Origin: an uncultured Pseudomonadales bacterium
GTDB taxonomy: Bacteria > Patescibacteriota > Microgenomatia > UBA1400 > UBA1396
Direction of reading: 5' to 3'
Length of the DNA stretch: 64,000 nucleotides
Assembly (NCBI GenBank): GCA_964603945.1
Contig: CAZRWP010000002.1
Span: 123,880-187,879, forward strand
Made by a program: the position numbers and the translations under genes. The number at the start of each line of letters is the position of its first letter. The first letter of the stretch is position 1. This document shows, piece by piece, positions 22,707 through 54,564 of the stretch. A model generated the notes under the pieces. It was not told where the DNA came from, made no database searches, and worked only from the letters and a program-made list of their open reading frames with translations.

Positions 22707-22786
22707 AATTTCTTTCTTGATTTTTTTTGTAAATTTGCCAATCAGGTTGATTCTTAATAAGACCTCTCGGCCAGCTCCTGACGGCA

Positions 22787-22809
22787 TAAAAAAACCTCCG
22801 GCGGAGGTT
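22787..22809 (-). terminator. rho-independent terminator for the 22974..24833 gene (palindrome ACCTCCG-G-CGGAGGT flanked by an A7 tract, read as U tract on minus strand)
   Basis: aaaaaaacctccggcggaggt; potentially bidirectional. Confidence 0.6.
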
Positions 22810-22973: not shown

Positions 22974-24833
22974 CTATTTCCCATACTGCTTTTTTAACGA
23001 GTCGCCGGACACGGTCTGGCTGGTAGCGCGGATACCACCGCCGGATGAGTCCCAGTTTTCCTGGTTAGATTCCCAACTGCCACCCATGCCGGTAACATAT
23101 TTTTTGTAATCATCTTCATTATAAAAAGCCATTTTGACACTGCCCAAATTGCCGCTGTCATATTTAACAATATCAAAATAAACATAGACAATTCGGCCTT
23201 TGTCGTCAGTGGTTTTAACATCCGGTTCGCCCAGGTATTTTTCGACATTGGTGATATCTTTCAGTTCTCCGCTCTCATCTAGTTCGTTGTACTCGCTAAT
23301 GTGCATGGCTGAACCAGACTCACCAGAGTTAGCTTGATCAGCGTTAGCCTGTTTGCGTAATGAACCAGATGGCGCAAAGCCACCCATGTATTCTTGGCCT
23401 GGCTCAATTACTTCTTCACCAATGACCATTTTAGTTAAAACTAATGAACTACTATTTACCTTAAACTCATAGTGACCGAGTGCTTCATCCTCACCAAAGA
23501 GTTTGACCACGTCGCCTTCCTGCTTCCAATTTTTGAAGTTATTGCCACTAACGGTGCCGTCACTATTTAAGACAAATTCAAACTCAGTGCTTTGTTCTTC
23601 GTTGTTGCCACCAGACACACTCTGCAATGAACCTTTCCAGGTTATGCCAGTAAAGTTATTTTCCGGAGAATCGCCATCATTTTTTCCGTCAGCCTGATTG
23701 TTTGACTCATTTTTGTTTTGGTCTGCCGACTTTTTTTGCTCTTCTTGCTGAGGTGCTTCAACTGGTTCGGTAGAGGCTAAAAATTCTTTTATTTCTGCCT
23801 CAGTCATGGGGACATATTTTTTATTAAGGCTGGCTAACCAGGCCTCAACTTCTGCCTTTTCCATTTCAGCCGCTGAGACTGCTCCCGGATATTTGGCTTG
23901 GCGGATTCTTTGGAATGGTTTTTGATATTCAAAATTAGTTAAATCAACACCGACTACTTTGCCTTCTTGGGCGGATTCTCTAAAACTCTCCAAACCAACC
24001 ATGACGGAGTCAAATTTTCCAAAGCCCGTTCCCAGGCTGGCCGGTATATTGGTAATTGTCATGACATTGGCAATTGGCTCTGTTACGGTTCTGACATCGC
24101 CTACAAAAGAAGAGATTTTATTTTTATCGCCTAAGGCGATTTGCGCGCCATCTTCGGTGACCTCTAAAGCCAAATCAACGCCGGTAACCACGATGGTTGC
24201 TTTGGTCAATACACCAGCTGTAGCAATGCCAGCTGTGCCACCAGTTAAAACCACGCCACCTACAAAACCAACCACCTTGCAACCATCCTTAACGACGATA
24301 GCTTGATGCTCTAAATTTTCAAATGCATCGCCTTCTTCAATAAATATATCAGCTGAAGTCTCATCCTGAACTTGATTCAGAATTAGCTGAGCCCTTTTGG
24401 CATCCACTCCCAAATGTTTAGCCAAAGTGGCAATACCTTTGAATTTCGGCGCTTTGTCATAGATATCATTAATTTCCTTGGCCGTATACGCATTGGCCGT
24501 GTCCACTAAATTAAAATTTAAGGCGGTCGACTCGGATTCTTGAGCCGCCTCCTCTTCTAATGACTTGACCTTATTTTCATACTCGTTCCAAGCCTTAATA
24601 AGCTCCGACATGTCCTTGTCCCAACTGGCATGGTCTGGATAGCTTTCAGCATTTATCAAAATGTTATCAGTTTGCTGACGCAGTAGCAGATATTCCTTGG
24701 AGAGATAATAGGTAGACTCCAGAACCTGTTCTTCAGAACGGTCCCGCGACATGAAAAGACTAATCCCTAAGATTCCGATGGCGATGATGAACGCAATAAC
24801 GATTAAGGGTTTAATTTTCATGAACCTTTTCAT
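22974..24833 (-). CDS. hypothetical membrane-anchored protein (N-terminal TM, Gly-rich central domain, acidic low-complexity region)
   Basis: TM KIKPLIVIAFIIAIGILGISLFM. VGFVGGVVLTGGTAGIATAGVL segment. No recognisable catalytic motif. Confidence 0.45.
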   Translation of the reverse strand: MKRFMKIKPLIVIAFIIAIGILGISLFMSRDRSEEQVLESTYYLSKEYLLLRQQTDNILINAESYPDHASWDKDMSELIKAWNEYENKVKSLEEEAAQESESTALNFNLVDTANAYTAKEINDIYDKAPKFKGIATLAKHLGVDAKRAQLILNQVQDETSADIFIEEGDAFENLEHQAIVVKDGCKVVGFVGGVVLTGGTAGIATAGVLTKATIVVTGVDLALEVTEDGAQIALGDKNKISSFVGDVRTVTEPIANVMTITNIPASLGTGFGKFDSVMVGLESFRESAQEGKVVGVDLTNFEYQKPFQRIRQAKYPGAVSAAEMEKAEVEAWLASLNKKYVPMTEAEIKEFLASTEPVEAPQQEEQKKSADQNKNESNNQADGKNDGDSPENNFTGITWKGSLQSVSGGNNEEQSTEFEFVLNSDGTVSGNNFKNWKQEGDVVKLFGEDEALGHYEFKVNSSSLVLTKMVIGEEVIEPGQEYMGGFAPSGSLRKQANADQANSGESGSAMHISEYNELDESGELKDITNVEKYLGEPDVKTTDDKGRIVYVYFDIVKYDSGNLGSVKMAFYNEDDYKKYVTGMGGSWESNQENWDSSGGGIRATSQTVSGDSLKKQYGK

Positions 24834-30454: not shown

Positions 30455-31504
30455 TTATCTTCCCCCATCCTCTAGCCCCGCTAGCAGGCGGCGCAAGCCT
30501 TCAGCACTATTGGAGGTCAGATCACCTGACTGCATCGGCAAATATTCCCGATATGCCGTAATGACCATGCTCACCCAATAGCCGCCGGTATGCTGGTTTA
30601 GGTATTTGGCCAGGTTGGGATTGCTCAGATCAATGCCCTGCCGCTGAGCCATGAATTCAACTTGGTCATTGGCGCTATTTAGAATAGCCAGAGGATGATA
30701 CTGCATGGCAAAGTAGGCGGAGCGCAAGGCTAACATTTGTTTAGAACTGCCCCAAACCGGGTGCTGGGCGATTAATTCGTGAATGTGCTCTTGTTTTTCT
30801 GGCACAACAGTTAGGCGCCCCTCAGCTGACAATAGTTCTTGGTACAAATACTCAAAAAAACTATGATCATTGACACGATTATTGCCAATTCGGACGTAGC
30901 GATTTCTGGTTGGCAAGATGGTGTCCTGGAGATTACCCTTTTGCAAGACCTGAATGGTGTCATCTTTGGTCAATCCAGCATAAAAACCGGCTAAGATGGC
31001 AAATCCCGCCCCATAATCCCGGGCAACCTGACGTAAGGTTCGTTCCCGATGTTTCCTATCCAGCTGAGCTAACTCTTGGCCAAAGACCGGCCAAATGGCT
31101 TGTTTTTGGTGAGTATTTAGAGGCTGCTGAGTAGTAATTGCCAGACGTCTGGATGGCAGTTGGCGGCTTTCACGCACGACATCCGAAAACTCGGCTGTTA
31201 TATTGAGAGGATTTTGCCTTAGTTCACGAATCAGGTCGCCAAGCACATCTTCATACACTCGATGCTGAGCGCCATGGGCGGAATAAGTTCGCGGATCCTG
31301 AATATCCTTGGCATTTTCAAATATCTGAATAAGTAAAGGGTTAAGCAGCTGCCGCTTGGAAAACCTAACGTGAGGAATTTCACGGTTTTGGTACTTAGCC
31401 AGAATGGTTCTATTTAACAACGGAAACATCTGCTCTAACTGCTCCATAATTGGCAGAATCAGCTCCTGAAATCTAGTTTCCTCTTCCGTGGGACGTGGTC
31501 TCAT
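30455..31504 (-). CDS. hypothetical protein (350 aa), uncharacterised
   Basis: Start placed at MRPRPTEEETRF; the ORF-track upstream extension is hydrophobic junk. No recognisable motif. Confidence 0.45.
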   Translation of the reverse strand: MRPRPTEEETRFQELILPIMEQLEQMFPLLNRTILAKYQNREIPHVRFSKRQLLNPLLIQIFENAKDIQDPRTYSAHGAQHRVYEDVLGDLIRELRQNPLNITAEFSDVVRESRQLPSRRLAITTQQPLNTHQKQAIWPVFGQELAQLDRKHRERTLRQVARDYGAGFAILAGFYAGLTKDDTIQVLQKGNLQDTILPTRNRYVRIGNNRVNDHSFFEYLYQELLSAEGRLTVVPEKQEHIHELIAQHPVWGSSKQMLALRSAYFAMQYHPLAILNSANDQVEFMAQRQGIDLSNPNLAKYLNQHTGGYWVSMVITAYREYLPMQSGDLTSNSAEGLRRLLAGLEDGGR

Positions 31505-31570
31505 GCAAAAATTTTGCAACCAGAGTGTAAAAGTTGGGTAAAAGTATTTTTTGTCGTATATACTGAAATT

Positions 31571-32238
31571 ATGAAGAATGCAAAAGCTGAACACCAATCC
31601 CCTATTGATGTGGATGACATAGAAACCAAAGGTTTCGATAGCCCAGAAACACAAAGAGATCATGCCTTAACAAGGCCCATGATTGATGTAAGGGGCAATC
31701 TTGCTCTTCCTAGTAGGCAAGAGGTTCACAGACTTTCGGTTCGGCAAATTGTAAAAAAATATCTGATAATAAAGAAGAAATTAAGAAGGCGTTTAAAAGT
31801 AAAAAGGAATTTCAACAAGCCATTGCAGAACTTTGGAGAAAACGCGGATTGGTTTTAAAGGATCTTGAGCCTCTTATTGATGCCTGGGATGAAGAAGTTA
31901 AAGAGGCAGAAGTATTTGACATACATATTGAGAGCCCACTGAGATTGGCTCATGAAATTAGACCAATACTCGATAAAATTAAATCTAGATCCGAAGTAAT
32001 CCATCTCGATAAATCAAAATATCGTGGATCTAACGATGAAAAACAAGAATTAATTTTACGATTAGATGAAGTAATTAAACAAATTAAGCCTGACAAATTT
32101 TCGCCTAAACAACTTGATAGGTTGAAAGATGCGGTGGAAATATTAAGACTTGAAGGTAGCTATGAGCCTCTAGAAAATTTTGTAAATAATTTAGTAAATC
32201 CTATAGAGGCAAAAGCCAGGCAAGCTCGCAATAATTAA
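31571..32238 (+). pseudogene. hypothetical protein split by a -1 frame change at an A7 run (ORFs 31514..31858 and 31849..32238)
   Basis: Frame A reads MKNAKAEHQSPID...RQIVKK. Frame B is protein-like from ...ISDNKEEIKKAFKSKKEFQQAIAELWRKRGLVLKDLE... Adding one A to the A7 run (about 31753-31760) joins them into one protein of about 220 aa. Confidence 0.45.
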
Positions 32239-34064: not shown

Positions 34065-35930
34065 TTATACTTGGTCAATCTGGTTTTGCAATGATTTGGT
34101 CAGTTTCATGTGCTCAGCGAAGAGAGTCTGCTGTTGTGTTTCCTGCTCCTGACTTAGTGTTTCCAGCTGATCGAACTCCTTTAGTTTTTGACTAATCTCC
34201 TGAAGGCGCTGGCGATACTGGCGTATTTGAATCTGCCCCAACGTGTCCTGCCAAATTTTGGCGATTTGATCTTCTGGAAAATCTTTATTGATGACATAAA
34301 GTCTGGTGACGATGTCGGTTAGTTCGCCTGGAATTGACTTGGCAAAATCAGACATGGCAAATTGTTTGTGATTTTTTAGGAATTTTTGAAGTTCATTTTG
34401 TAGTTTAGTGAGTAGCGGATCGGTGAAATTTAGCTTGGTTAGTTCCTGGACGGTTTGATTGGGATCTGGATGCTGCCAGGCTAATTGCCAGATGGTTTCT
34501 TCAAGTTTGTCGGTGGGAGTGGCGGTTTCTTCTTGATCTGAGTTGTTGTTTGTATTTGGCGAGTCATTTAGCGACTTGGCTGACTGATTTCCAGCTTGGG
34601 CTGACTGGCCATGGCTAGCGTAGCGGGCACGCTTACCAGTAGAAATTTCCTGTTTACGCTGCAGGCGATTTAGCTGATCTTCCAACACGTGGACTGGCGT
34701 GCTTAGGGTCTCACCCAATTTTTGCAAGTAGAAATTGCGCTCCACCGGATGCTCCACTTTTAAAACCAACCCCAACAATTCATCCGACACCGCGCGCTGG
34801 CCGGCGGCAGATTTTAGATCATGCTGTTTGCTGACCTGTACCAGGAGGTAATCAAAGGCGGCCTGGTGTTGCTTGACCAGTTCGCGCCACTGGGCGGGGT
34901 TTTGCCGGGCTAGGTCGTCTGGGTCCTTGCCGCCGGCCACGGGGATGACCCGCAAGGCAATCTCAAAGCCTTGGACGGCCTCAATCGCCCGTTTGGTGGC
35001 TTCGATACCGGCTGAGTCAGCGTCCAGCGACAGATAAATAGTTTTAGCCACTCGGCTTAACAAGCGGATTTGTTCAGTCGCCAAAGCTGAGCCTTTAACG
35101 GCCACCACGTTTTTGACATGCGCTTGCATGGAACTGAGCACATCAAACTCTCCCTCAACGACAATAGCGGCTTCCTTTTCCCGAATGGCGTTTAGGTTTT
35201 GCGTGTAGCCAAACAGCAAGTTGCGTTTGTGATATACCATGGTTTCCGGCGAATTAATGTACTTGGCTTCCTTGACGTCGGCGGCCAGCGTCCGTCCGCT
35301 AAAGCCCACCACCCTACCCCGATGGTCATGCAACGGGAACATCACGCGGTTACGAAAGCGGTCATAAACTCGGTTGTTTTTGCCCTCAATGACCAGGCCG
35401 GCCGCGATTAATTCCTCTGTGGTGAACTTTTTCTTTTTGGTGAGATAAGTGGTGAGGTGATCCCAGCCGTCGGCGGCAAATCCCAGGCCAAAATTCTTAA
35501 TGGTGGAGGCGGTAGTTTGGCGGTTTTTAAGATAAGCGCGGCCGGCCTCGCCCACTTTATGTTCATTTAGCAGATAGGCAAAATACTTCTGAGCCGCATC
35601 TAGAGCAGCCAGGACCCGCTGACGCATTTGCTCCTGCGGATCAAAGGTATCATTAATTAGTTCGATACCGACTTTCTTAGCCAGTAACTCCAAGCCCTCA
35701 CGGAAAGTCAGTCGCTCATATTCTTCCAAAAAGGTGAAAACGTCGCCCTGCTTGCCGCAGCCAAAACATTTAAAGGTCTGCAAATCTGGCGAGACAAAAA
35801 ATGACGGCGACTTTTCACTGTGAAATGGACAGAGACCACGATAATTTTTGCCACTGCGTTGCAGTTTCACCCGCTCGCCGACAATCTCAACTAGATCAAC
35901 TCGTTCTTTTATTTCTTGTATTTGGGACAT
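34065..35930 (-). CDS. dnaG: DNA primase
   Basis: Zinc-binding motif CPFHSEKSPSFFVSP...FKCFGCGKQGDVFTF. TOPRIM EGEFDVLS...DADSAG. Conserved dnaG-rpoD gene order. Confidence 0.92.
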   Translation of the reverse strand: MSQIQEIKERVDLVEIVGERVKLQRSGKNYRGLCPFHSEKSPSFFVSPDLQTFKCFGCGKQGDVFTFLEEYERLTFREGLELLAKKVGIELINDTFDPQEQMRQRVLAALDAAQKYFAYLLNEHKVGEAGRAYLKNRQTTASTIKNFGLGFAADGWDHLTTYLTKKKKFTTEELIAAGLVIEGKNNRVYDRFRNRVMFPLHDHRGRVVGFSGRTLAADVKEAKYINSPETMVYHKRNLLFGYTQNLNAIREKEAAIVVEGEFDVLSSMQAHVKNVVAVKGSALATEQIRLLSRVAKTIYLSLDADSAGIEATKRAIEAVQGFEIALRVIPVAGGKDPDDLARQNPAQWRELVKQHQAAFDYLLVQVSKQHDLKSAAGQRAVSDELLGLVLKVEHPVERNFYLQKLGETLSTPVHVLEDQLNRLQRKQEISTGKRARYASHGQSAQAGNQSAKSLNDSPNTNNNSDQEETATPTDKLEETIWQLAWQHPDPNQTVQELTKLNFTDPLLTKLQNELQKFLKNHKQFAMSDFAKSIPGELTDIVTRLYVINKDFPEDQIAKIWQDTLGQIQIRQYRQRLQEISQKLKEFDQLETLSQEQETQQQTLFAEHMKLTKSLQNQIDQV

Positions 35931-35970
35931 GTTCGGTTTAAGGCTAGTATAACGTAAAAAATGCAGGGTG

Positions 35971-36056
35971 AAGGATCATCCTTGCCCCTTCTCTTGCCTG
36001 GAAGGATCATCCTAGGATGATCCTTCTTGAGGAAACTAACCGCAAGGATGATCCTT
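35971..36056. promoter_or_regulatory. four copies of a 13-bp motif AAGGATCATCCTT / AAGGATGATCCTT (including one perfect 24-bp palindrome) in the dnaG upstream region
   Basis: Copies at about 35971-35983, 36002-36014, 36013-36025 (inverted, forming AAGGATCATCCTAGGATGATCCTT) and 36044-36056. The dnaG start is at 35930. Confidence 0.45.
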
Positions 36057-36138
36057 CTATAGCAAAAATAGCATAAGTCTTATTAAAAAAGAGTTAAGAA
36101 ACAACTTCAACAAATTTAAACAAGATTAGTCAGGCTGT

Positions 36139-37293
36139 CTATTTAAATCGCCCGAACACATTACGTCTCAAAGTATTTAAAGTCTGCCTGCAATCGGCTT
36201 CAGCTAAACGCACCTGTTGAACCAGGTGAATCATTATCCCACCAACTAAATAAAGTTCCGCCAGTTCTTCCCAGGCGACATATTTCCAGGGACCATGATT
36301 GCGTCTCAACCAGACATAAAGCACGATCATGGCAAAATTTATAAACAGATACCCACTTGGAATAAATAATTTTACTCGGTTGGCAATGATGCCCTTTTTG
36401 GGCAGTAATTCAGTCGCCAACCACTTGGGAATCCAGGCCAGCATGCCATATAGTCCAATCAGCAAATAGCCAGTGTAAACATACGGCCAGACGATTTCCG
36501 AATTATGTAAATTAATTTCACTTTGCCGATTTTGTTCTGCGATAATGGCGGGAGTTTGAAACTCAAAAATCCGTTGTCCCCAGGAAATTTCTTCACCTCC
36601 CACAACAAAAAAAGCTATTCCGGCCAATAAAAACAAATATTGAAACAAGTACTTTTCCCACTTTTTAGTACCCCATTTTTCCGCGTAACGGCTGAGCCAA
36701 ACAGACAAGCCAGCACTGGCAAAATAACCAAGAGCGGTTAAGTTTTCAATTAATCCATCTTCAGCTCTGATAGTTTTAAATAATTGAGGATTCTGCAGAT
36801 GAAGGTAACCTGCCCAGAGCAAGAGTCCGAGTAAGCCGTAGAAATAAAACATTTTTAGGCGTTTTTTTAGCCAGTTCGCAGGCGCATGGCTTAAGCCAAA
36901 CATGATGATGATTAAAGTTAAGGGAAAAAGTCCGGCGTAATGAAATCTAAAATTCACAAAAAAGTAGTTTGGGAACATGGGGCCATATTCTTCCAGGCAA
37001 AATAGCAAGGCCGGTAGGATGCCTAAGACCGGTGCCACAAAGGACAAGCTCACTTTGGCAAAACTTTTAGGTAAGTGATAATGATGCGTTAAACGAATAA
37101 GTAGATGAATCACCGCCGCCACTGCGCCCAGCATCAAAGGAGAAAATTTCAAGTGATTTTGAACTACACCGTTATAAACAATAATGTCAACCAAAGCTAA
37201 AGCAATAACACCCAGATAAGAAAGTTTGATGGCCAAGGGAAACCATTTGGGAAGAGGTTTTTTGGGAGATTTGCCAATAAAGGGTGCGTCCAT
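36139..37293 (-). CDS. polytopic membrane protein (about 10 TM), paralog of 40540..41655
   Basis: Shared blocks RAEDGL[IF]E..TA.G[YF]F and EEISWGQRIF.FQTP..IA..N.Q.EI..HN.E...PYVY.GY...LYG. Confidence 0.5.
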   Translation of the reverse strand: MDAPFIGKSPKKPLPKWFPLAIKLSYLGVIALALVDIIVYNGVVQNHLKFSPLMLGAVAAVIHLLIRLTHHYHLPKSFAKVSLSFVAPVLGILPALLFCLEEYGPMFPNYFFVNFRFHYAGLFPLTLIIIMFGLSHAPANWLKKRLKMFYFYGLLGLLLWAGYLHLQNPQLFKTIRAEDGLIENLTALGYFASAGLSVWLSRYAEKWGTKKWEKYLFQYLFLLAGIAFFVVGGEEISWGQRIFEFQTPAIIAEQNRQSEINLHNSEIVWPYVYTGYLLIGLYGMLAWIPKWLATELLPKKGIIANRVKLFIPSGYLFINFAMIVLYVWLRRNHGPWKYVAWEELAELYLVGGIMIHLVQQVRLAEADCRQTLNTLRRNVFGRFK

Positions 37294-37295
37294 AA

Positions 37296-37985
37296 TTACA
37301 CCAGAGGTTGATATTGAAGCAGTGTCAGTCTTACGGTTTTATCCATTTTGGTCAATGTTTGACGCAATTTTTCTAAATCGGTATTTGACTTGGGTTTAAC
37401 CAGAAACATCATAACTTGTTCCTTTTCCTGAGATAGACGAATAAGTTTAATTTGATGGCAGTGACTTTCTAACACCTTAAGGACTTCTGGAAGTGGTTGT
37501 GGCTGCGCAAAGACAATCTCCAGGTGAAGTGAGTCCTTGTCAGTAAATAAGCGGCTCAGTTGTCGTCTCAGCAGGGCTTGTCCTAAAATTACCGTCATAA
37601 TTACCCCAAAAAAGATCAGCGTAATTATTGGTTGATTGGCACCAAAACCTAGGCCCAAAGCAATTGTCAGGAAAATATAAGCCAGTTCTTCCGGATCCTT
37701 GATGGCGGAACGGAAACGCACGATCGACAAAGCACCAACGAGGCCTAGTGACAAAGCCAAAGAAGATTGAATAATCGAAATAATCAACATGGTAGTCAAG
37801 GACATCAGCGGCAAGATGACAGCTAACCGGCTACGGTTGGATAAGGAATTGCCCAAATAATAATAGGTGATGGCGACCAGGCTGGATAAAGCAATTAAAA
37901 TCAAAGAATAGATAAAAGTTTGACCTGGGTCAAAAGTTCCGCTAACTGAAAAATATTCGCGAAGTAAATCTAGCTGCATAACCAA
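37296..37985 (-). CDS. DUF4956 family membrane protein (Vtc1-like)
   Basis: Signature LVGALSIVRFRSAIKDPEELAYIFLTIALGLGFGA plus multiple TM helices. Recalled co-occurrence with CotH and VTC-domain genes. Confidence 0.55.
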   Translation of the reverse strand: MVMQLDLLREYFSVSGTFDPGQTFIYSLILIALSSLVAITYYYLGNSLSNRSRLAVILPLMSLTTMLIISIIQSSLALSLGLVGALSIVRFRSAIKDPEELAYIFLTIALGLGFGANQPIITLIFFGVIMTVILGQALLRRQLSRLFTDKDSLHLEIVFAQPQPLPEVLKVLESHCHQIKLIRLSQEKEQVMMFLVKPKSNTDLEKLRQTLTKMDKTVRLTLLQYQPLV

Positions 37986-38010
37986 ATAAGTATAGCATTG
38001 GTTATCTTAA

Positions 38011-39771
38011 TTATTGAGTAACGGTATTAGCTTGAGTGAAGAAATCTTGCGAGTGCTGTGTGAAGGCGGCCGGCCTGGCCCTGAGGTAGTCCTTTAACAG
38101 TTCTACTCGCCTCTCCCACTCTTCCACCGAAGCCACGCTTGGCACCGGCGCAGAGTAGCTACCCAGATGGCTGAGCGCTTCTTGATCTACTAATTCCGAT
38201 TGACCGTTCTGGCCGGCCGCCGATTCTTGATCCATTCCAGCCTGGCTGGCAAGATCCGCCGACTCACTGGCCTTTACTCCGCCCCAGCGTTCCACTTGAC
38301 GCGGCATTTCTGGTCTAATTTCTTCAGCCAAGCGGTCAACCGTAGCCGTCATATTATCGCCGCTCAAAGTAGTTTGAGTTAGCTCGGCCAGTCGCTCAGT
38401 CCACTGTTTTTGGAATGGCCGGTTAAAAAACAAGTTGCGGAATGGAAATTCATGATCCTCAAAATTAGTAAAAGGATTGCCATTGGCTGACTTGATCATT
38501 CTTTCGGTTGAGTCGTTACTGCCACCCATTGATACGTCTAGATCAAACAATAGCCAGCGCCAGCGGCCATCTAATTCCGGCACCATTTGGGATTCAACGG
38601 GCGCGGCAATTTCTGTCCGGTAACGCCAAGCCTTGGTGTTGTTATAAGGCCAGTCAATGTTGGCAAAAAAGAATTCAAAAAGCAGATAGTCTAGCAAATT
38701 ATTGATATCACTCAGGCTATTAACATGACTGTAACTTGCACAATGGGTACAAGCTCTGATATCAGATAAAAGACGGTTATAAAGTGCCGCCTCCCCTTCC
38801 ATTTGCTTGGTGTCGCCAACAGCCCGACCACGGTTCACGCCATTGTCTAAAGGTATATCAACTACCGCCAAGGCTTCCGGATCTACTCGATATTTTTCCT
38901 CAAAGTAAGTTTCGTCAAAGCGCTCGCGGACATAATAAAGTCCCCAGTACTCACCATTCAGATACAGGACGACTGGCCTGGCTGCTTGGGCGTCCAACGT
39001 AGAATCACTTTGTTCAACTAACTCCGCCGCCAAGCGATCACGCATAAAGGCGTTTTGGGCATCACCGCCACCATTTCTTAAAATTAATGAAGAATGTTGT
39101 CGGTTGCCCTCCTCGCCAAAAATTGGATAAGTAAGTTTTTCTTCTCGGCCATTTTCATCCTGAATGTAAATGCGAAATGATTTCTGAGCCATGCCACGCA
39201 TGGCATTTCCATGTAATCTCAGGCCAATGGTATGCTCAAAACCAATCTTCTGATCTGGTTCATACCAACGCATCATGGCCGGCCGTTCCCACTTATCGCC
39301 ACTTTGACGATGATTGTTGTTGTTGCCTTCGATGTAAATACCAATCTCTGGATCCCAGAGTGAAGCCGGCGGCAAATTAATCGAAATAATCGGTAGAGTG
39401 TGTTCAGTACCGATAAAGAAATCCTGACGCTGGGGTTTGGTCAGTACTTGCCCATTTTGATCGGTAATCGTAGTTTGCAACACCACAGTTTTATTAATCT
39501 CAACTGGCTCTCTATAAATTAGTGAATCCGATCCAGGTGACGACCCATCAAGAGTGTAGCGAATATCACCATTAATCGGTGAGCTCAAACTAACGGAAAT
39601 TGGCTCCTTAAAAAATTGACCGCGCGGTGAGATCGCCACCGGCTCAGACAGTAAATTTCTAAGCAAAAAATTGGACTGCCAAAACGCTAAAACCACGAGT
39701 AATAAAACTCCAAAAACCAGCCCAAACAGCCGACTATTTTGAGAAATTGGACTAACACGATAAAGCTGCAT
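38011..39771 (-). CDS. CotH kinase family protein (N-terminal TM anchor)
   Basis: CotH-like blocks LILRNGGGD, RD.LAAEL, LYLNGEYWGLYYVRERFDETYFEEKY. N-terminal TM. Confidence 0.65.
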   Translation of the reverse strand: MQLYRVSPISQNSRLFGLVFGVLLLVVLAFWQSNFLLRNLLSEPVAISPRGQFFKEPISVSLSSPINGDIRYTLDGSSPGSDSLIYREPVEINKTVVLQTTITDQNGQVLTKPQRQDFFIGTEHTLPIISINLPPASLWDPEIGIYIEGNNNNHRQSGDKWERPAMMRWYEPDQKIGFEHTIGLRLHGNAMRGMAQKSFRIYIQDENGREEKLTYPIFGEEGNRQHSSLILRNGGGDAQNAFMRDRLAAELVEQSDSTLDAQAARPVVLYLNGEYWGLYYVRERFDETYFEEKYRVDPEALAVVDIPLDNGVNRGRAVGDTKQMEGEAALYNRLLSDIRACTHCASYSHVNSLSDINNLLDYLLFEFFFANIDWPYNNTKAWRYRTEIAAPVESQMVPELDGRWRWLLFDLDVSMGGSNDSTERMIKSANGNPFTNFEDHEFPFRNLFFNRPFQKQWTERLAELTQTTLSGDNMTATVDRLAEEIRPEMPRQVERWGGVKASESADLASQAGMDQESAAGQNGQSELVDQEALSHLGSYSAPVPSVASVEEWERRVELLKDYLRARPAAFTQHSQDFFTQANTVTQ

Positions 39772-39772
39772 G

Positions 39773-40504
39773 CTAATGGTAGTATACGTCGTTGGGATGA
39801 CACTGTTGCATCCCCATCACGAATTTTGATGACTTGCTGACCCTTAAGGGCAGTCCCTGAGCCAAGCTTGGTAGTTTTGTATCGTCTGAGATGGGATATT
39901 TGGCTTCCAATATGGTAATCGGGAGTTGTCGGGTGGTCAGATTATTTTCCCAATCGGTAATAGTGGAAAAGTGCAGATCACTATCAATGGTTATCCTTAA
40001 ATCATTTTGCGCCGAGGTGAAATAGCGGCGTTGGTAGTGATTTAATAGGGCGGGTTGCAAAATTCCACTCTCTTCTAAATGAGTCTCAAGCTGTTGTCGG
40101 ACCAAGTCAGTTAGCTCAGCTAAGGAAAGATCTTTTATAGTGGTTTGAAACGGATAAGTAAGTTTGAGCATGACCTCGCCATCGCGACGTTTTAACTCAA
40201 TTTGAAGCTTATCCAACTTATTGTCTTTGTCTGAATACCATCTGACACGCGCCTTGACCCGTTGCGGTTGGCCTAAAAGATTTTGCTGATAATACTCATA
40301 TTCTGGCGTATCAAAGTACAGAGTCCAAATTTGACGCGGTACAAAAGCCGGCCGGAAAATATCCGGGTGCATTAAAAGACGCTGTTCCAACTGGTCGGGA
40401 TCGTAAACGTCACTCAAATATTTGCGCTCATAGCGGTAGACGGTCAAAGGAGCTGTAGATGATGTGCCAGAGCCTGAATTCATAAAAGAAGGCATAACTT
40501 CCAT
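39773..40504 (-). CDS. VTC-domain (CYTH-like polyphosphate-polymerase-type) protein
   Basis: N-terminal YRYERKYL and about 240 aa, consistent with bacterial VTC-domain proteins. One nt from the CotH start. Confidence 0.5.
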   Translation of the reverse strand: MEVMPSFMNSGSGTSSTAPLTVYRYERKYLSDVYDPDQLEQRLLMHPDIFRPAFVPRQIWTLYFDTPEYEYYQQNLLGQPQRVKARVRWYSDKDNKLDKLQIELKRRDGEVMLKLTYPFQTTIKDLSLAELTDLVRQQLETHLEESGILQPALLNHYQRRYFTSAQNDLRITIDSDLHFSTITDWENNLTTRQLPITILEAKYPISDDTKLPSLAQGLPLRVSKSSKFVMGMQQCHPNDVYYH

Positions 40505-40539
40505 AGTATACGTAAGTTTAAGCTAAAATAAGTTATACT

Positions 40540-41655
40540 TTGGCTATGCAATTACCAATCAAGAATTCCGCCCATCCCCGACTTATTAATATTCTTTATG
40601 GTTCTTTGGTTGGCGGCGGATTAGCTATTTTTGGACTTTATCTCTTGGAAGCCATATTTTACCCTGGCGCCGTAGCAGCTCGTTTGGGAATTAGTCTCCT
40701 GCCAGTCACGATTTTGTATCTATTATTTCTAGCGATGGTTAAGTTTATTGAACCGCCTAATTTAATAAAACAAGCAGCGACCAGCACACTGCTCTATTTT
40801 TCGCCAGCGCTCGCCATGAGTTCCTTATTTTTAGATTTTGCCAATGACGTTTTATTTGATAATTTTAGTTTCAGCACATTTCATCTTCATCCGGTTCAGC
40901 TGCATTTAGCCGGAATGTTTTTAGCTCTTTTTTGCTTATTTTTAGCTGATTGGCGCCGGCTTTTGGCTAATTGGCAGCGTTGGTTATTTGGTTCTAGTTT
41001 AATTGTGTTTACCTTGGTTGCTTATCTTAAACGAGTTTATTTGGCCACTTGGTTTCATACTTTGAGGGCAGAGGACGGATTGTTTGAATATTTTACCGCC
41101 ATTGGATTTTTTATTGGCGGTGTAATCATGTTAAGAATTGCTCGTCATCTTTGGCAAACAAAAAACTATAACTGGAGAAATGTTCTACTGCCTTTTTGCG
41201 TCTTGGTGGGTTTGGCATTATGCGTAATTGCGATGGAAGAAATATCCTGGGGTCAAAGAATATTCAACTTCCAGACTCCACAATTTATTGCTGATAGTAA
41301 TACTCAAGATGAAATTACGATTCACAATAACGAGGCTATTTTGCCCTATGTTTATTATGGTTACTTCATTGTGTCTTTATATGGATTCATATCACCGCTC
41401 ATTAAGCTGGTGATTAAACGCTATAAATTATTAGCTGATAAATTTAAAATCTGGCTGGAATTCATCATGCCCGACTGGTATTCCATTCCTTTATTTTTGC
41501 CGACTTTATATTACACATCTTATCGCCTGACCATTGGTTGGGAATATTATGAGATCGGCCAATGGGAAGAAACGACCGAAATGTTTTTAGGAGCGGCCGC
41601 CGCCGTTTTTGCTTTAGGTTTATACAACAAGGTTGTCAGGCAGATTAGAAGCTGA
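40540..41655 (+). CDS. polytopic membrane protein, paralog of 36139..37293
   Basis: Shared EEISWGQRIFNFQTPQFIADSNTQDEITIHNNEAILPYVYYGY block; about 10 TM. Confidence 0.5.
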   Translation: MAMQLPIKNSAHPRLINILYGSLVGGGLAIFGLYLLEAIFYPGAVAARLGISLLPVTILYLLFLAMVKFIEPPNLIKQAATSTLLYFSPALAMSSLFLDFANDVLFDNFSFSTFHLHPVQLHLAGMFLALFCLFLADWRRLLANWQRWLFGSSLIVFTLVAYLKRVYLATWFHTLRAEDGLFEYFTAIGFFIGGVIMLRIARHLWQTKNYNWRNVLLPFCVLVGLALCVIAMEEISWGQRIFNFQTPQFIADSNTQDEITIHNNEAILPYVYYGYFIVSLYGFISPLIKLVIKRYKLLADKFKIWLEFIMPDWYSIPLFLPTLYYTSYRLTIGWEYYEIGQWEETTEMFLGAAAAVFALGLYNKVVRQIRS

Positions 41656-41718
41656 AATAACTATATTCACCAAAATTTCTTCTCACCTAAACTCAGCTAA
41701 AGCCATTACTCATAAAGA

Positions 41719-43492
41719 TTGATACACTTATTAAATATGAATTTTCTAAATTGGAATGAATTTTCTCGATATGCTACTTATTTTGTGCTGATATTTGTCT
41801 TATTACTAACCTTGATATTTAGATTTTGGCAGCTTGAGTTGATACCCAGCGGCTTAAATTGGGATGAAGCAGCTTATGGTTATAACTCTTATAGTTTGCT
41901 TTTAACCGGAAATGACGAATGGGGTGTTAGCTGGCCAATTTTTCTTAGGTCATTTGGTGATTTCAAACCGGCTCTACTAAGCTATCTGCAAATACCTCTG
42001 ATTTATTTTAATGGTTTAACAACAAATTCATTGCGTATTCCAGTTGCCCTATTGGGAGTGATTAGCTTGATAAGCTGGTGGACGATCCAAAATAAGTTGG
42101 AGCTATTTTCAACCAAAAATATTCCAAATTAATGCCGCTAATTGGTTTGTTACTATTAGCTACCTCTCCTTGGCATATTCATTACAGCCGGTCAGCCATG
42201 GACCCGATTGTTTCATTTGCTTTTTTAATGATGGGATACGCTTTATTTATTCAAAAACAGGCAGCGCTTAGATGGTTTGGCGTAGCCTCCCTAATTTTAT
42301 CCATGTATACCTACAATTCAGCTCGCCTGTTTGTACCCATATTACTTTTACTGCACTTAATAATTTTTGAATTGCCCATTATCCAAAAATATAGGAAGAA
42401 CCTATATCGGCTTTGGCAATTCGTTGTCATCTGGCTTAGTTGTTTATTAATTTTAGCTGCGACTTTATTTACTGAGGTGGGGTCACGCGCCCAATCTGTC
42501 TTTATTTTGAATAAACCGCAAATCCAGGATCAAACTAATGAGTCTATTTATCGTTCAACTGCCCTGGGAATGAAAGGCTTAAGGTTTTACAGCAACAAGG
42601 CCATAACCGCCACTTATGAAGTCACAAAAAATTACATTTCGCACTTTGATCCGCTCTTTTTATACTTTGATCACAATTTAAGTGCCCGCCACGGATTTAG
42701 TCGGCATGGCAATCTTTTACTTATTACTTTACCGTTTTTAGTTTGGGGATTATTTTCCGCCAATGTAAAAAATCCAAGCGAAATTTGTTTTTTTTGTTAT
42801 GGCTGATTTTGGCACCAATTCCTTCAGCTTTAAGCGATGATGTACCCCACTCCGGACGAACCTTAATTATGCTGCCAGCAATAATTTATTTTATCTCAAT
42901 GGGCATGGAAAAGTTTTTCCTAATGGCTGACAGCGTAAAATTACGACTTCATAAAAAGTTGCCTAATTATCTTCTACCAATGTTGGTTGTTGTCGGATTG
43001 TCATTAAATGCTGGTCTATACTTTGTAGATTTGTACCGTTACTTTCCTGAAGATTCCTACTTTGATTGGCAAGGTGATGCCCACACAATTGTTGAATTAA
43101 TTAAGGAAATAGATACCGAGGAAGATGAATCAATTGTTGTCACTAATGAACTCCTGGAATCCTATATTTTCTATGCCTTTTATACTCAGCTTGATCCTAA
43201 AGTGTTGCAGGCTCAGCATAATGCGGTTGATTTAAACACATATGGAGAAGTATCTATTGATGATGTAGATGTTTGCACCTTACTTAAACCAAATACCTTG
43301 GTTATAACCACGCAAGACTACACTTTGAGTTTGCCAAAAGCTGTATTAGATGAAAATGAAAAATTATACTCAGAAACAATCTGGCCCTTTAACCGATTCT
43401 CACAGGGGAAACCCTTAGGTTATGTGTATAGATCAAACCTCATAACTCCGAAAGCGCAGGCGGCAATTGAGGGATTGTGCGAGGTAGATTAA
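41719..43492 (+). pseudogene. GT39-family (PMT/ArnT-like, undecaprenyl/dolichyl-phosphate-dependent) glycosyltransferase split into three ORFs by two -1 frame changes at homopolymers
   Basis: ORF1 41719..42132 (WDEAAYGYNSY...FKPALLSYL). ORF2 42132..42806 (LLLATSPWHIHYSRSAMDP). ORF3 42743..43492. Junction 1 at an A5 run (about 42115-42119). Junction 2 at a T8 run (42788-42795). In each case +1 nt restores a continuous protein of about 590 aa. Confidence 0.6.
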
Positions 43493-43502
43493 TAGGGTGC
43501 GG

Positions 43503-43563
43503 AGGGAGTGGTCACTCGTCAGGCATGACTCGTGACATTAGCCACGCTCGCCTACGGCATGAG
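43503..43563. repeat. conserved roughly 60-nt element (copy A), immediately 3' of tRNA-Ser and flanked by 13-bp direct repeats of the tRNA 3' end (GCGGAGGGAGTGG)
   Basis: cactcgtcaggcatgactcgtgacattagccacgctcgcctacggcatgagc aligns at about 85% with 49411..49460. Flank repeats at 43498-43510 and 43568-43580. Confidence 0.5.
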
Positions 43564-43565
43564 CT

Positions 43566-43653
43566 TGGCGGAGGGAGTGGGATTCGGACCCACGGTATCT
43601 TGCGATACGGCGGTTTAGTAAACCGCTGCACTAGACCACTATGCGATCCCTCC
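43566..43653 (-). tRNA. tRNA-Ser (class II, long variable arm); anticodon reads ACT in the hand fold
   Basis: Acceptor GGAGGGA/UCCCUCC, G73, CCA encoded, D-arm GCA-UAGUGGUCUAG-UGC, anticodon stem GCGGU/ACCGC with loop UUACUAA, 17-nt variable arm, T-arm GUGGG-UCCGAAU-CCCAC. Anticodon needs tRNAscan confirmation. Confidence 0.7.
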
Positions 43654-43783
43654 AAATATATGCGAGTTGATTTCTTAAATACCCATATCAGGATGTTTAA
43701 ATATCAAACGTAAAGATATTATAAGTCAGTCTAAGCCAAAACTAGTCACAAAAAACTAATCAAATCTATTTTAAATATCTTAA

Positions 43784-44413
43784 CTAGAATCCCAAGTCTT
43801 CTTCAACCAATATAATATGAACTTTTCTACCAGAGTAAGGATTCTCATTTTTAAATATTACGATTTTATTGAGTGAAGTATCAGAACCATAAGCTGATTG
43901 ACTACGTGTGTTTTCCAACGGGACTACGTGTTTTTCTAAGCGATCAAAACCGGCATCCATGGTTGCAACAATCTTTTTGGTGCTGACAACTAAAATTAAG
44001 TTTTTGGCATTGTAGACCAAGCTAGGCAGTTGATTACCGGTGTTGGAAGCGACAATAAATTCACCATTCGTGATAAGCGCGTGCACACTGCCTAAATAGT
44101 AATCTGCCAAACTAGCCTGCCGACGCAGATTTCTTTGTTTTTCGATATCTTTCTCTGCCAAAATTTCAGCTTGCAGGTTTCTCCATTCATGTTGACCTGA
44201 CTTTAAAAGATCCGTAAATCCGATTTGTTTTAAGGAGTATGAAGTGCCGCTAATCACTGAAGCATCAGTTGGAACTATCTCTTTTATTTTGGCAAGAGCA
44301 CCGGCACCATTAGGAACTTTATGTACCTGATATTGCTTTTTAGTCAGAGCTTTAATGGTAACTTCCAGATTGGTTGGTGAGGCAAGTGCGTTGTAGTCCA
44401 TGTGTTTCATCAT
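43784..44413 (-). CDS. LUD-domain protein (LutC/YkgG-like)
   Basis: Block EFIVASNTGNQLPSLVYNAKNLILVVSTKKIV resembles the LUD-domain core; about 209 aa. Confidence 0.4.
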   Translation of the reverse strand: MMKHMDYNALASPTNLEVTIKALTKKQYQVHKVPNGAGALAKIKEIVPTDASVISGTSYSLKQIGFTDLLKSGQHEWRNLQAEILAEKDIEKQRNLRRQASLADYYLGSVHALITNGEFIVASNTGNQLPSLVYNAKNLILVVSTKKIVATMDAGFDRLEKHVVPLENTRSQSAYGSDTSLNKIVIFKNENPYSGRKVHIILVEEDLGF

Positions 44414-52083: not shown

Positions 52084-54564
52084 TTAGTTGCCGAAAGTTG
52101 GCGGTTTTGGTGGCTGAAGCCCGGCTGGTGCGGCTGGCTGGATGTCTTGTCCAGTGGTTGGTTGGGCAGGAAGTTGTTCAGAGGTTGGCTGAGTAGGAGG
52201 CTGTTCGTCTGCCTGAGGTCCGACTGGCGAATTAACTGTTGGCTGGGTTACATCCTGTGAATCAACTGGTGGTTGTGTTGTTGTTGATTCAACCGATTGA
52301 GGCATATTTGGCGGTGTCAAAGCTGAGTCTGTTGATAAAGTCTCATTAAAAGAAACATTTGAGGGATAGGTGGGGGCGGATGAAGGCATAGCTGATGGTG
52401 CTGGCGTACCGGTAACCGGCGCATCTGAGCTGGATCCGGTCTCAGTAGATGGTACTGTTTGAACTGCCTCGGCTCCTTGGCTGGAGTCCTCTAATGGAGA
52501 CATTTCATCATCTGAAAGAACCACTGGAATGTCTTGAACCATTTGTACTAGTTCATTCAAGCTATCTTGAACCTCATCTGCATTGTCAGGGATTTCAAGG
52601 GTTTCAGGGGACTGGGTTGGTGCAGGTGTAGGACTGGATGTTGGCGCGGGAGTTGTTTCATCTGCTCCCATTTTGCTTAATTCTTGATTCCCTGGCTGTT
52701 CTGGCTCAGAAAATACTTCAGCTGGCGTAAAATCTGTCCCCTGATCTGAAGATTCGTTATTTTCGATTGACAAATCAAGAGTTGGAGTTGAGGTTTGAGC
52801 AGGCGTTGATGCCTGGGCAGGAGCAGGTGTAGGTGTTGGTGCGGAAGTTCGCATAGGTGCTGGTGCCGAAGCAGGTTCTTGCGTTGGCGTTGGCACTGAA
52901 TCTGCTGTCGGTGTTTGTGATAAATCTGGCACTGGCTTAATAGATGGCATTGCATTTGGCATAGCCGATGTTGGCGTTGAAATTGGTGCCTCTGCCGGCA
53001 GAGGAGTTGGTTCTGATGAAGGTGAACTATTTACCTCAGCATTGGGCTGTGGTTGAGCATTGGGCTGTGGTTCAACATTTGGTGGGGTTTGAGCTACCTG
53101 ATCTGTTGGCGTTGTATCTGACATAGCAATACTTTCTAAGTTTGTTGGGTCTTGAGACATTGGGCTAGGTTGAGGTGTGGAAATAGGTGCTTGAGCAGGA
53201 ACTGGCTCAGTTGCCGGAGCTGGCATTTGGGCTGTTTGATTAGAAGGCTCAGGCTGAGAAGCAGGATAAGTCGGAGAAGTTGGAGCAGTTTGCATAGCAG
53301 GTTGTGTGGAAGCCATCAGAATTTCTTCAATTCTTAAAAGCCGATTATATTTAACGACTCTTTCACCTCTGGATGGGGCGCCAAATTTAACGTAATCAGT
53401 TCCAATGCCGACGGCAATATCTGCTAAAACGTCATCAGTAGTTTCGCTAGAACGGTGCGACATGATGGTGTGCCAGCCGGCTTGCTTGGCAATACTGGCT
53501 ACTTCAATAGCTTCCGTAATAGTTCCAATCCGGTTAGGCTTAATGACCAAAGCATTGCAGGCCTTTTCTTCAATTGCTTTCATGAGTAACGTTTTGTTGG
53601 TGGCGATCAGGTCATCAGCGATAATCATTGCTGTCTCGCCCATCTCACCAGTAATAAATTTCCAATCACTCCAGGCTTCCGGTACTAATGGATCCTCAAA
53701 AGCGAAAACCCGATATTGTTCATGCAGTTTTTTAAGATACTTGGCAAAATCCTTGCCACTCATTGGCTGAGATTGATCTTTAATGGTGTATTTGCCGCTT
53801 TTATGGAAGTTATCTGAGCCGACATCAATTCCTAAAAAGGCATCCTTAGAAATGGTGTAGTTAGCGGCTTTAGCGGCTTCGGCAAAAATTTCCAAGGCAT
53901 CTGTATTGGTAGCCAGGTTAGGTGCAAAACCACCCTCCAGACCAACATTGGTTAGAGCACCCTTTTGTTTGAGCACTTCCTCAATTGACATGAACATCTC
54001 CACACCAATTTTTAGAGCTTGGTTGTATGGTAGATGGCTGGCAGGAACAAGTTGGAACTCCTGGAAATCCAAGGTGCCGCCACCATGGCGGCCGCCATTA
54101 ATTAAATTAAAAATGGGTGAAGGAATGCGGAAAGCATCGATTAATTGGTATTTTTCTTTAACATAGACAAACAGCGGCAAACGCAAGGAAGCCGCGGCCG
54201 CCTTCATCACTGCCTGGGAAACCGCCAGAATCGTATTAGAGCCTAAGCGTGATTTATTTTTGGTACCGTCTAGATCCACCAGCAGCTGGTCAATCTTAGT
54301 CTGGTAAAGTGGATCTTGCCCGGCTAGTTTTTGGTTGATTTCCACATTTATCAAAGCGACTGCTTTTGAGACGCCCAGGCCAAAATACTCAGTTGGCACA
54401 TGATCGCGCAGCTCAACCGCCTCCACTTGCTCATTGCTTATGTTACCTGAGGGAACCGATGAAGTCGCAATGGTGCCATCGGACAGGGTGACGGTAGCCT
54501 CAACCGTTGGGCGTCCTCTGGAATCAAGTATTTGACGGGCGGTGATAAGTTGAATATTTGACAT
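52084..54564 (-). CDS. eno: enolase fused to a roughly 390-aa Pro/Thr/Ser/Ala/Gln-rich low-complexity C-terminal extension
   Basis: Enolase blocks SRGRPTVEATV, SHRSSETTDDVLADIAVG, KFGAPSRGERVVKYNRLLRIEEIL. After the enolase domain at about 430 aa the frame continues into ...TAPTSPTYPASQPEPSNQTAQMPAPATEPVPAQ... through ...PPKPPTFGN. Confidence 0.85.
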   Translation of the reverse strand: MSNIQLITARQILDSRGRPTVEATVTLSDGTIATSSVPSGNISNEQVEAVELRDHVPTEYFGLGVSKAVALINVEINQKLAGQDPLYQTKIDQLLVDLDGTKNKSRLGSNTILAVSQAVMKAAAASLRLPLFVYVKEKYQLIDAFRIPSPIFNLINGGRHGGGTLDFQEFQLVPASHLPYNQALKIGVEMFMSIEEVLKQKGALTNVGLEGGFAPNLATNTDALEIFAEAAKAANYTISKDAFLGIDVGSDNFHKSGKYTIKDQSQPMSGKDFAKYLKKLHEQYRVFAFEDPLVPEAWSDWKFITGEMGETAMIIADDLIATNKTLLMKAIEEKACNALVIKPNRIGTITEAIEVASIAKQAGWHTIMSHRSSETTDDVLADIAVGIGTDYVKFGAPSRGERVVKYNRLLRIEEILMASTQPAMQTAPTSPTYPASQPEPSNQTAQMPAPATEPVPAQAPISTPQPSPMSQDPTNLESIAMSDTTPTDQVAQTPPNVEPQPNAQPQPNAEVNSSPSSEPTPLPAEAPISTPTSAMPNAMPSIKPVPDLSQTPTADSVPTPTQEPASAPAPMRTSAPTPTPAPAQASTPAQTSTPTLDLSIENNESSDQGTDFTPAEVFSEPEQPGNQELSKMGADETTPAPTSSPTPAPTQSPETLEIPDNADEVQDSLNELVQMVQDIPVVLSDDEMSPLEDSSQGAEAVQTVPSTETGSSSDAPVTGTPAPSAMPSSAPTYPSNVSFNETLSTDSALTPPNMPQSVESTTTQPPVDSQDVTQPTVNSPVGPQADEQPPTQPTSEQLPAQPTTGQDIQPAAPAGLQPPKPPTFGN

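Follow-up and report, generated by a model that had tools for sequence, protein, structure and literature searches.

Organization of the VTC-CotH-DUF4956 gene cluster

The stretch analysed, referred to below as the window, comprised 64,000 nucleotides (nt) of contig CAZRWP010000002.1 in GenBank assembly GCA_964603945.1 (positions 123,880 to 187,879), and contained a cluster of genes for a VTC-domain protein, a CotH-family kinase, and a DUF4956 membrane protein, together called the trio, flanked by two membrane protein genes, designated memA and memB, and an interrupted glycosyltransferase (GT) gene. An earlier note on this DNA had placed the VTC, CotH, and DUF4956 genes on the minus strand with spacings of 1-25 nt and had assigned the three domains; the listing of open reading frames (ORFs) reproduced both coordinates and spacings, and the three domain assignments were upheld by Pfam matches far above the gathering scores. 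As detailed below, the cluster in the window is a clade-specific variant of an already noticed, biochemically uncharacterised module. It consisted of the following features.

39773..40504, minus strand: VTC/TTM (triphosphate-tunnel)-domain protein of 243 amino acids (aa), or 240 aa with the ATG start at 40495; Pfam VTC
38011..39771, minus strand: CotH-family kinase, 586 aa; Pfam CotH and CHB_HEX_C_1/Fn3_assoc
37296..37985, minus strand: DUF4956 membrane protein, 229 aa; Pfam DUF4956
36139..37293, minus strand: memA, polytopic membrane protein, 384 aa; fourth gene of the operon and paralogue of memB
40540..41655, plus strand: memB, membrane protein with 10 transmembrane (TM) segments, 371 aa, or 369 aa from the ATG at 40546; paralogue of memA
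41737..43492, plus strand: interrupted gene for a predicted GT-C (ArnT/PMT-like) glycosyltransferase, assigned from homologues and a weak ArnT profile match
41719-42132, 42132-42806, and 42743-43492, plus strand: fragments of the GT gene, three ORFs in three frames
42115..42119, plus strand: first frameshift site in the GT gene, a poly-A run of 5 in the window versus 6 in the intact allele
42767..42772, plus strand: second frameshift site in the GT gene, a poly-A run of 6 in the window versus 4 in the intact allele

The gaps between the minus-strand genes measured 1 nt (VTC/CotH), 25 nt (CotH/DUF4956), and 2 nt (DUF4956/memA). MemB was transcribed divergently from the VTC gene with the two start codons merely 35-50 bp apart (40505-40545), a distance that forces the two promoters to overlap either coding sequence or one another. 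Scans of 35800-43800 for consensus promoters and for terminators gave results at chance level and were uninformative.

Predicted products of the trio genes

The VTC protein matched Pfam PF09359 with an E value of 2.5e-25 and 89.8 bits (cutoff 23) over profile positions 2-234 of 235; with zero TM-like segments, it was a soluble protein predicted to be cytoplasmic. Single-sequence searches of the PDB with the VTC, DUF4956, and CotH proteins were weak or empty, and the structure matches for VTC and CotH were therefore obtained with family profiles. The profile made from 26 bacterial VTC homologues matched yeast Vtc2, Vtc4, and Vtc3 only, with E values of 1e-9 to 1e-8. Fourteen residues, R24, E26, K28, R86, R88, E103, K105, R159, Y161, R170, E200, K202, S226, and K227, were invariant across these homologues. 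In the alignment of the profile to the PDB entries, R86/R88 of the window protein fell on the RLRW motif and E103/K105 on the ERK motif of Vtc4, the other residue equivalences being judged from motifs only. Among the residues that we take to line the Vtc4 tunnel (K200, R264, R266, K281, R361, E426, and K458), three align with conserved residues of the window protein. On this comparison, the window protein appears to belong to the VTC branch of triphosphate-tunnel enzymes and to be competent.

Gene fusions between VTC and DUF4956, as a sign of physical coupling, were found in none of the loci examined; apparent overlaps of the two genes in loci L075 and L053 were rejected as fusions, being a product of stop-to-stop ORF calling. 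Compared with L003 and L004, two contigs from other samples that were ~99.5% identical, the window strain showed ~35 substitutions, 17 of which were packed into 217 bp of the VTC gene (39920-40136), and the whole VTC protein differed at 4 residues only; these crowded changes resemble a short tract of recombination kept under purifying selection.

The CotH protein matched Pfam PF08757 with an E value of 1.4e-45 and 156.6 bits. Its kinase domain occupied aa 184-568 (nt 38068-39222) and was preceded by a CHB_HEX_C_1/Fn3_assoc domain at aa 49-108 (CHB_HEX_C_1, E 1e-11). The membrane anchor previously ascribed to this protein was confirmed as a single N-terminal hydrophobic segment at aa 15-33 (nt 39673-39729), predicted to be a TM anchor. 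Because this is the only such segment and basic residues precede it, the catalytic part should lie outside the membrane. A profile of trio-linked CotH proteins matched CotH of Bacillus cereus (5jd9) with an E value of 8e-46 over residues 28-357, that is, the whole kinase domain. The motif residues K197 (in QKSFRIY), D373 and N377/N378 (in ANIDWPYNN), and D410 (in LLFDLD) were kept, D410 being nearly invariant; from structural work on CotH, these are presumably catalytic.

The window protein thus resembled the Bacillus spore-coat kinase (5jd9/5jda) in full-length homology of the kinase domain and in possession of the Lys/Asp/Asn/Asp motif residues, but differed in being membrane-anchored with a catalytic domain predicted to lie outside, in carrying the extra CHB_HEX_C_1/Fn3_assoc domain, and in lacking a sporulation context. 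The protein is anchored by a TM segment and has surface-type domains, and the window ORFs scanned included no sporulation genes; a spore-coat role for it was therefore rejected.

The DUF4956 protein matched Pfam PF16316 with an E value of 9e-16 and 58.5 bits (cutoff 30.6), and >7,700 relatives of the family were found; a weak match to DUF6439 was the only other Pfam match at E values up to 0.1. Instead of the Vtc1-like channel that the earlier note had seen in it, the protein had five TM helices and a C-terminal ACT-like domain of beta-alpha-beta-beta-alpha-beta order with similarity to the C-terminal domain of MgtC, and no match in sequence or fold to chains of the VTC complex. A remote match was obtained with the hidden Markov model of the MgtC/SapB family, at 27 bits versus a family cutoff of 214. 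The protein differed from MgtC/SapB/YhiD proteins in scoring far below the family cutoff and in carrying an invariant motif of its own, a basic R-F-R..K patch whose R90, R92, and K96 lie at the predicted cytoplasmic end of TM3. MgtC, to our knowledge, is not obligatorily paired with VTC and CotH, as DUF4956 is.

Conservation of the trio

A scan of a genome collection with a DUF4956 alignment returned 80 loci, in which partner genes were sought with iterated profiles. The loci spanned Bacteroidota, Chloroflexota, Planctomycetota, Verrucomicrobiota, Proteobacteria (including Pelagibacteraceae), Gemmatimonadota, and others. DUF4956, CotH, and VTC genes occurred on one strand within 4.5 kb in 54 of the 80, and most loci without the full trio were cut by contig ends. 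The count depends in part on the iterated CotH profile, since the Pfam model confirmed 38 of 60 sampled trio-linked CotH ORFs at E values up to 1e-5 and the rest were called by the iterated profile only; the consensus of that profile still showed the CotH motifs.

The genes flanking the trio were heterogeneous: among 77 flanking ORFs, inorganic pyrophosphatase was the most frequent family (5), followed by Por_Secre_tail (4) and GT2 (3), with no constant fourth neighbour. The trio is therefore regarded as a self-contained module. The leading place of inorganic pyrophosphatase (in loci L006-L085) could hint at a step that releases pyrophosphate (PPi).

Of 80 CotH ORFs linked to the trio, 71 had a hydrophobic segment near the N terminus, and none of 66 VTC ORFs contained any TM-like segment. 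The layout of the trio is thus constant, with a soluble VTC protein inside, DUF4956 in the membrane, and an anchored CotH outside. Accessory domains of trio-linked CotH proteins belonged to classes associated with surfaces or glycan binding (Beta_helix 11, CHB_HEX_C_1 6, PKD 6, and LTD 3). In Chloroflexota, the DUF4956 ORFs (L011, L025, L030, and L043, from metagenome-assembled genomes [MAGs] of Anaerolineae/Chloroflexia) reached ~460-530 aa; the N-terminal extension matched the lectin-like 3keto-disac_hyd domain (PF06439) in L011 and L043, gave a weak match in L025, and had none in L030. This fusion points to a possible contact of DUF4956 with extracytoplasmic carbohydrate.

Two loci had unusual arrangements. 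In a Kordiimonadaceae MAG (L064, 9213-20656), a single contig carried several adjacent VTC/DUF4956/CotH sets, distributed over its two strands. In a MAG assigned to Candidatus Woesearchaeota (L046, 9887-12158), a DUF4956-CotH pair was followed by the end of the contig before VTC could be seen; this archaeal occurrence may be an interdomain transfer or a binning error.

Comparison with known systems

The three gene families have been noticed before. Whitfield et al. (bioRxiv 10.1101/768473) described cotH, a polyphosphate (polyP) polymerase gene, DUF4956, and DUF4832 as an accessory group of pel operons in streptococci, clostridia, and bifidobacteria. In Streptococcus intermedius (SIR_1592-1594; PMC12345266), deletion of the DUF4956 gene raised Pel and deletion of the CotH gene lowered it, each of the two deletions cutting aggregation in artificial sputum medium by >50%. 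Hence the adjacency of the three genes, as described in the earlier note, stood but was not new, the group having been published together with S. intermedius mutants.

The Gram-positive pel accessory genes resembled the window cluster in having the three families in tandem and a CotH predicted to be secreted or outside; the pel-locus DUF4956 was described as combining a TM domain of MgtC type with an ACT domain, in agreement with the model of the window protein. They differed in gene order, VTC-CotH-DUF4956 in the window being an order unseen in the 80 genome loci, and in their flanks, which in the window consisted of the two mem paralogues and the GT-C gene. The authors of the S. intermedius study did not find synteny of the trio outside pel loci (PMC12345266), whereas it was found here in many phyla without a constant neighbour. 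DUF4832 was matched by none of the eight cluster ORFs scanned, and pel-type families by none of the 28 Pfam-scanned ORFs of the window, a scan that covered about half of its 58 ORFs of at least 120 aa. A Pel-accessory role in the window was rejected, there being no pel genes among the ORFs scanned.

With the eukaryotic VTC complex, the trio shared a VTC-type tunnel domain with aligned RLRW and ERK motifs and a membrane protein encoded alongside. In contrast, the window VTC protein had neither a fused TM region nor an SPX domain (Pfam scan), no relation of the membrane partner to the TM domain of Vtc1 type could be detected, and an extracytoplasmic kinase was the constant third partner of the bacterial trio.

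A similar arrangement is found in NELoc-2 of Clostridium perfringens (PMC2879425), where VTC genes are each followed by a gene for a membrane protein of ~225 aa, annotated as 'tubulin/FtsZ' and possibly DUF4956, and then by CotH and glycosyltransferase genes. NELoc-2 differs in that it is a pathogenicity locus of a Firmicute, has its VTC pair in duplicate, and contains a resolvase gene and, in place of GT-C, a chitin-synthase-like GT2; no mem genes are reported for it.

The GT-C glycosyltransferase gene

The GT gene was intact as a 584-aa ORF in L003 and L004. Relative to this allele, the window gene showed only the two poly-A length changes listed above, which put it into three frames, and zero substitutions across 1.75 kb. 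Either the gene was recently inactivated in the window strain, possibly by slippage, or it was mis-assembled. That the apparent pseudogene is merely a sequencing or assembly error, the gene being intact in the organism, is a possibility to be taken seriously, if on balance a doubtful one: nothing but two homopolymer lengths separates the alleles, and the three frameshifted assemblies (the NCBI contig of the window and two Logan runs with neighbouring accessions) may share reads. Against this, both indels recurred in the separate run assemblies SRR7082966 and SRR7082968, and a two-base change in a run of 4-6 A residues is, in our judgement, unexpected for short-read error, should the platform have been a short-read one.

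Neither the fragments nor the intact 584-aa protein matched Pfam PMT or PMT_2 (PF02366 and PF13231) at E values up to 0.01, and the first fragment gave a weak NCBIfam Agl23 match (E 2e-4). Homologues with 25-40% identity (E 1e-108 to 1e-30), mostly from Patescibacteria or Pacebacteria, carried PF02366/PF13231 and were named GT39 or ArnT-like; their names make Patescibacteria the probable lineage of the window. Searched against solved structures, the family profile matched ArnT (5ezm) only, with an E value of 2e-4, and a D43-E44 pair closely following the predicted first TM segment (aa 13-31) was invariant. By transitive homology, the protein is classed as a GT-C enzyme; it shares with ArnT/PMT enzymes (GT-C; GT83/GT39) homologues that bear PMT/PMT_2 domains, the profile match to 5ezm, and the acidic pair after the first TM segment, but differs in scoring below all Pfam thresholds and in being encoded by a gene frameshifted twice. 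The gene had been called an undecaprenyl-phosphate-dependent GT39 glycosyltransferase; the GT-C type was retained through the homologues, while an intact single ORF in the window and the PMT_2 match were not found and the lipid donor was unsupported.

The mem family and its association with the trio

MemA and MemB shared 29% identity over 358 aa (BLASTP, E 2e-38) and the block EEISWGQRIF.FQTP...PYVY, and neither matched a Pfam family, in agreement with the earlier view of two flanking paralogues of unknown family. The family comprised ~7,400 clusters at 50% identity. No solved fold was matched, despite a confident structure model, and a search for domain fusions that might hint at function yielded TPR tails only. 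An invariant acidic/His motif lay on the predicted outer face, the loops of MemB having 10 Lys plus Arg residues on the N-terminal side versus 3 on the motif side. Among 86 neighbours in 80 mem loci were PMT_2 (4), GT1 (4), GT2 (3), PAP2 (3), Polysacc_synt (2), and epimerase (2) genes, so that the neighbourhood shows a tendency towards glycan and lipid-carrier functions.

The block of trio, mem, and GT-C genes recurred in three other lineages. In L089/L090 (DUF4956 69% identical to that of the window) and L091/L092 (67%), a PMT gene and a divergent mem gene were followed by VTC-CotH-DUF4956-mem; L092 ran on into dnaG-rpoD, as did the window, in which the cluster had dnaG/rpoD on one side and a tRNA-Ser gene on the other. 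The mem gene after DUF4956 was orthologous to memA in L089 and L091 (55% and 50% identity, respectively), and the upstream copy in these loci belonged to another subfamily with the motif GDEISWGQRL. In a more distant metagenome locus (L098), a GT584-like gene preceded VTC-CotH-DUF4956-mem, whereas L093 (DUF4956 55% identical) had the trio alone. Co-conservation, which had been named as a check on the original prediction, was thus seen both for the trio across phyla and for the wider block within these lineages.

These flanks may nevertheless be a separate system, in which memB, the GT-C gene, and possibly also memA form an independent glycosylation pathway beside the trio and the cluster consists of two units, an arrangement that we consider somewhat unlikely. 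The closest homologues of MemB (50% and 47% identity) are encoded beside PMT_2 and GT584-like genes without the trio, and L109 likewise has a mem gene followed by a GT584-like gene. No mem or GT584-like gene was found in the 80 trio loci from other phyla, and only 1 of the 80 mem loci carried the trio; the link of mem and GT-C genes to the trio is therefore clade-specific. In addition, memB and the GT gene lie on the strand opposite to the trio, and frameshifts can remove the GT-C gene while leaving the trio intact. On the other hand, memA follows DUF4956 by 2 nt, its orthologues hold exactly this position in L089/L091 with a mem gene placed likewise in L098, and these lineages also have another mem copy and a GT-C gene beside the trio, though subfamily and strand differ. 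In our reading, mem proteins generally act together with the machinery of extracytoplasmic glycosylation, and a memA-type gene became the fourth gene of the trio operon in one clade.

Possible function of the module

Outside the cell, there is no pool of ATP on which a surface CotH kinase could draw. We tentatively propose, at somewhat less than an even chance, that the trio feeds phosphoryl groups from the cell interior to a kinase on the outside, by which an envelope polymer is modified, with the mem proteins and the GT-C enzyme acting on the same substrate. At the inner face of the membrane, the VTC enzyme would convert nucleoside triphosphate into polyP or another phosphoanhydride product; DUF4956 would receive this product and pass or gate it across the membrane; and the surface CotH would use the supply to phosphorylate an envelope glycan or protein, on which extracytoplasmic substrate the mem proteins, through the conserved acidic/His site on the predicted outer face, and the GT-C enzyme would also act. 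The proposal is based on the firm Pfam identities, the presence of the trio in 54 of 80 loci, the constant layout, and the retained motif residues of VTC and CotH. Also counted in its favour are the lack of a constant fourth neighbour, the accessory domains of CotH, the lectin-like fusion of DUF4956 in Chloroflexota, the recurrence of the wider block, the neighbours and loop charges of the mem family, and the effects of the DUF4956 and CotH deletions in S. intermedius (PMC12345266). In a stronger form, which we think distinctly unlikely, a Vtc4-type polymerase would make polyP at the inner face, an oligomer of DUF4956 would thread it out, the surface-anchored CotH would use it as the donor for envelope glycans or proteins, and the mem proteins of this clade would represent a new class of outer-face enzymes, of a fold not yet matched by a solved structure, that share their substrate with the GT-C enzyme.

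Several points weigh against this supply mechanism. MgtC/SapB proteins, the nearest named relatives of DUF4956, are known as regulators and not as transporters, and DUF4956 showed no similarity, by sequence or fold, to the Vtc1/Vtc4 channel. The spore-coat CotH of B. cereus is an ATP-dependent kinase, and we know of no kinase of the CotH fold that uses polyP. No biochemical study of any bacterial VTC, DUF4956, or CotH member of the trio was found in the literature searched. The mem/GT-C part of the proposal is further weakened by the clade-specific link described above and by the disruption of the GT-C gene in the window itself. Finally, in S. intermedius, deletion of the VTC gene was without reported phenotype, and the opposite movement of Pel in the DUF4956 and CotH mutants (PMC12345266) fits regulation better than a linear supply chain.

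The main rival is a regulatory module, in which DUF4956, with its MgtC-like TM part and ACT-like ligand-binding domain, and the VTC/TTM enzyme would sense or set phosphate or energy status and tune an envelope-polymer machine. The VTC protein would then be a triphosphatase or a maker or breaker of a small signal, nothing would be translocated, and CotH would act separately on the surface. Taken as a whole we hold this to be unlikely, although it is the better fit to the opposite mutant phenotypes and to the lack of one reported for the VTC mutant (PMC12345266), and is consistent with the remote MgtC/SapB match, with the resemblance of the ACT-like domain to the C-terminal domain of MgtC, and with inorganic pyrophosphatase as the top neighbour, which fits a PPi-releasing TTM reaction. 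However, the strict inside/membrane/outside layout and operons that stay tightly linked from phylum to phylum point more to a physical relay than to separate roles; the solved relatives of VTC were Vtc2/3/4 only, with no CYTH cyclases or triphosphatases among the matches; and regulation leaves the phosphoryl donor of the extracellular kinase unexplained. Export of polyP as the end product, with VTC and DUF4956 placing it on the surface for cation binding, matrix, or phosphate storage and CotH binding, anchoring, or capping it, is quite improbable: the Vtc4-like residues of VTC, the invariant basic patch of DUF4956, and the published link of the trio to the matrix polysaccharide Pel (bioRxiv 10.1101/768473; PMC12345266) speak for it, but the retained kinase motif residues of CotH argue for catalysis, the S. 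intermedius VTC mutant had no reported phenotype, and nothing in hand indicates a pore in DUF4956.

If the stronger form of the supply mechanism is correct, it would account for the phosphorylation of extracellular material by bacteria, and the constant layout of enzyme, membrane protein, and surface kinase offers a concrete, testable answer to the question of phosphoryl supply to an extracytoplasmic kinase. The known bacterial routes to polyP are those of PPK1 and PPK2; a bacterial VTC protein shown to make polyP would add a third. Since carriers of the trio are spread over many phyla, abundant marine and gut groups among them, and since the trio is tied to biofilm matrix in pathogens, such a mechanism would apply widely. 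New relative to the pel literature are the trio as a self-contained module in many phyla, its constant layout, and its extension by mem and GT-C genes in four lineages including that of the window. For the window itself the result is more modest, namely a clade-specific variant, and the parts worth follow-up are the breadth of the trio, its constant topology, and the large unnamed mem family, which, with its thousands of clusters and no Pfam model or solved counterpart, offers ample scope for structural and functional work.

Other features of the window

Five further ORFs, all on the minus strand, matched no Pfam family at the thresholds used: 57737-60028 (763 aa), 60086-61078 (330 aa), 21663-22787 (374 aa), 22974-24833 (619 aa), and 30455-31663 (402 aa). 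The enolase ORF (52084-54564, minus strand) predicted a protein of 826 aa, in which the Pfam enolase domains covered aa 1-420 only, the ~400 C-terminal residues being without a family match. Just downstream of the GT gene, ARAGORN predicted a tRNA-Ser gene with the anticodon ACT at 43566-43653 on the minus strand; A at position 34 would be unusual for a bacterial tRNA-Ser.

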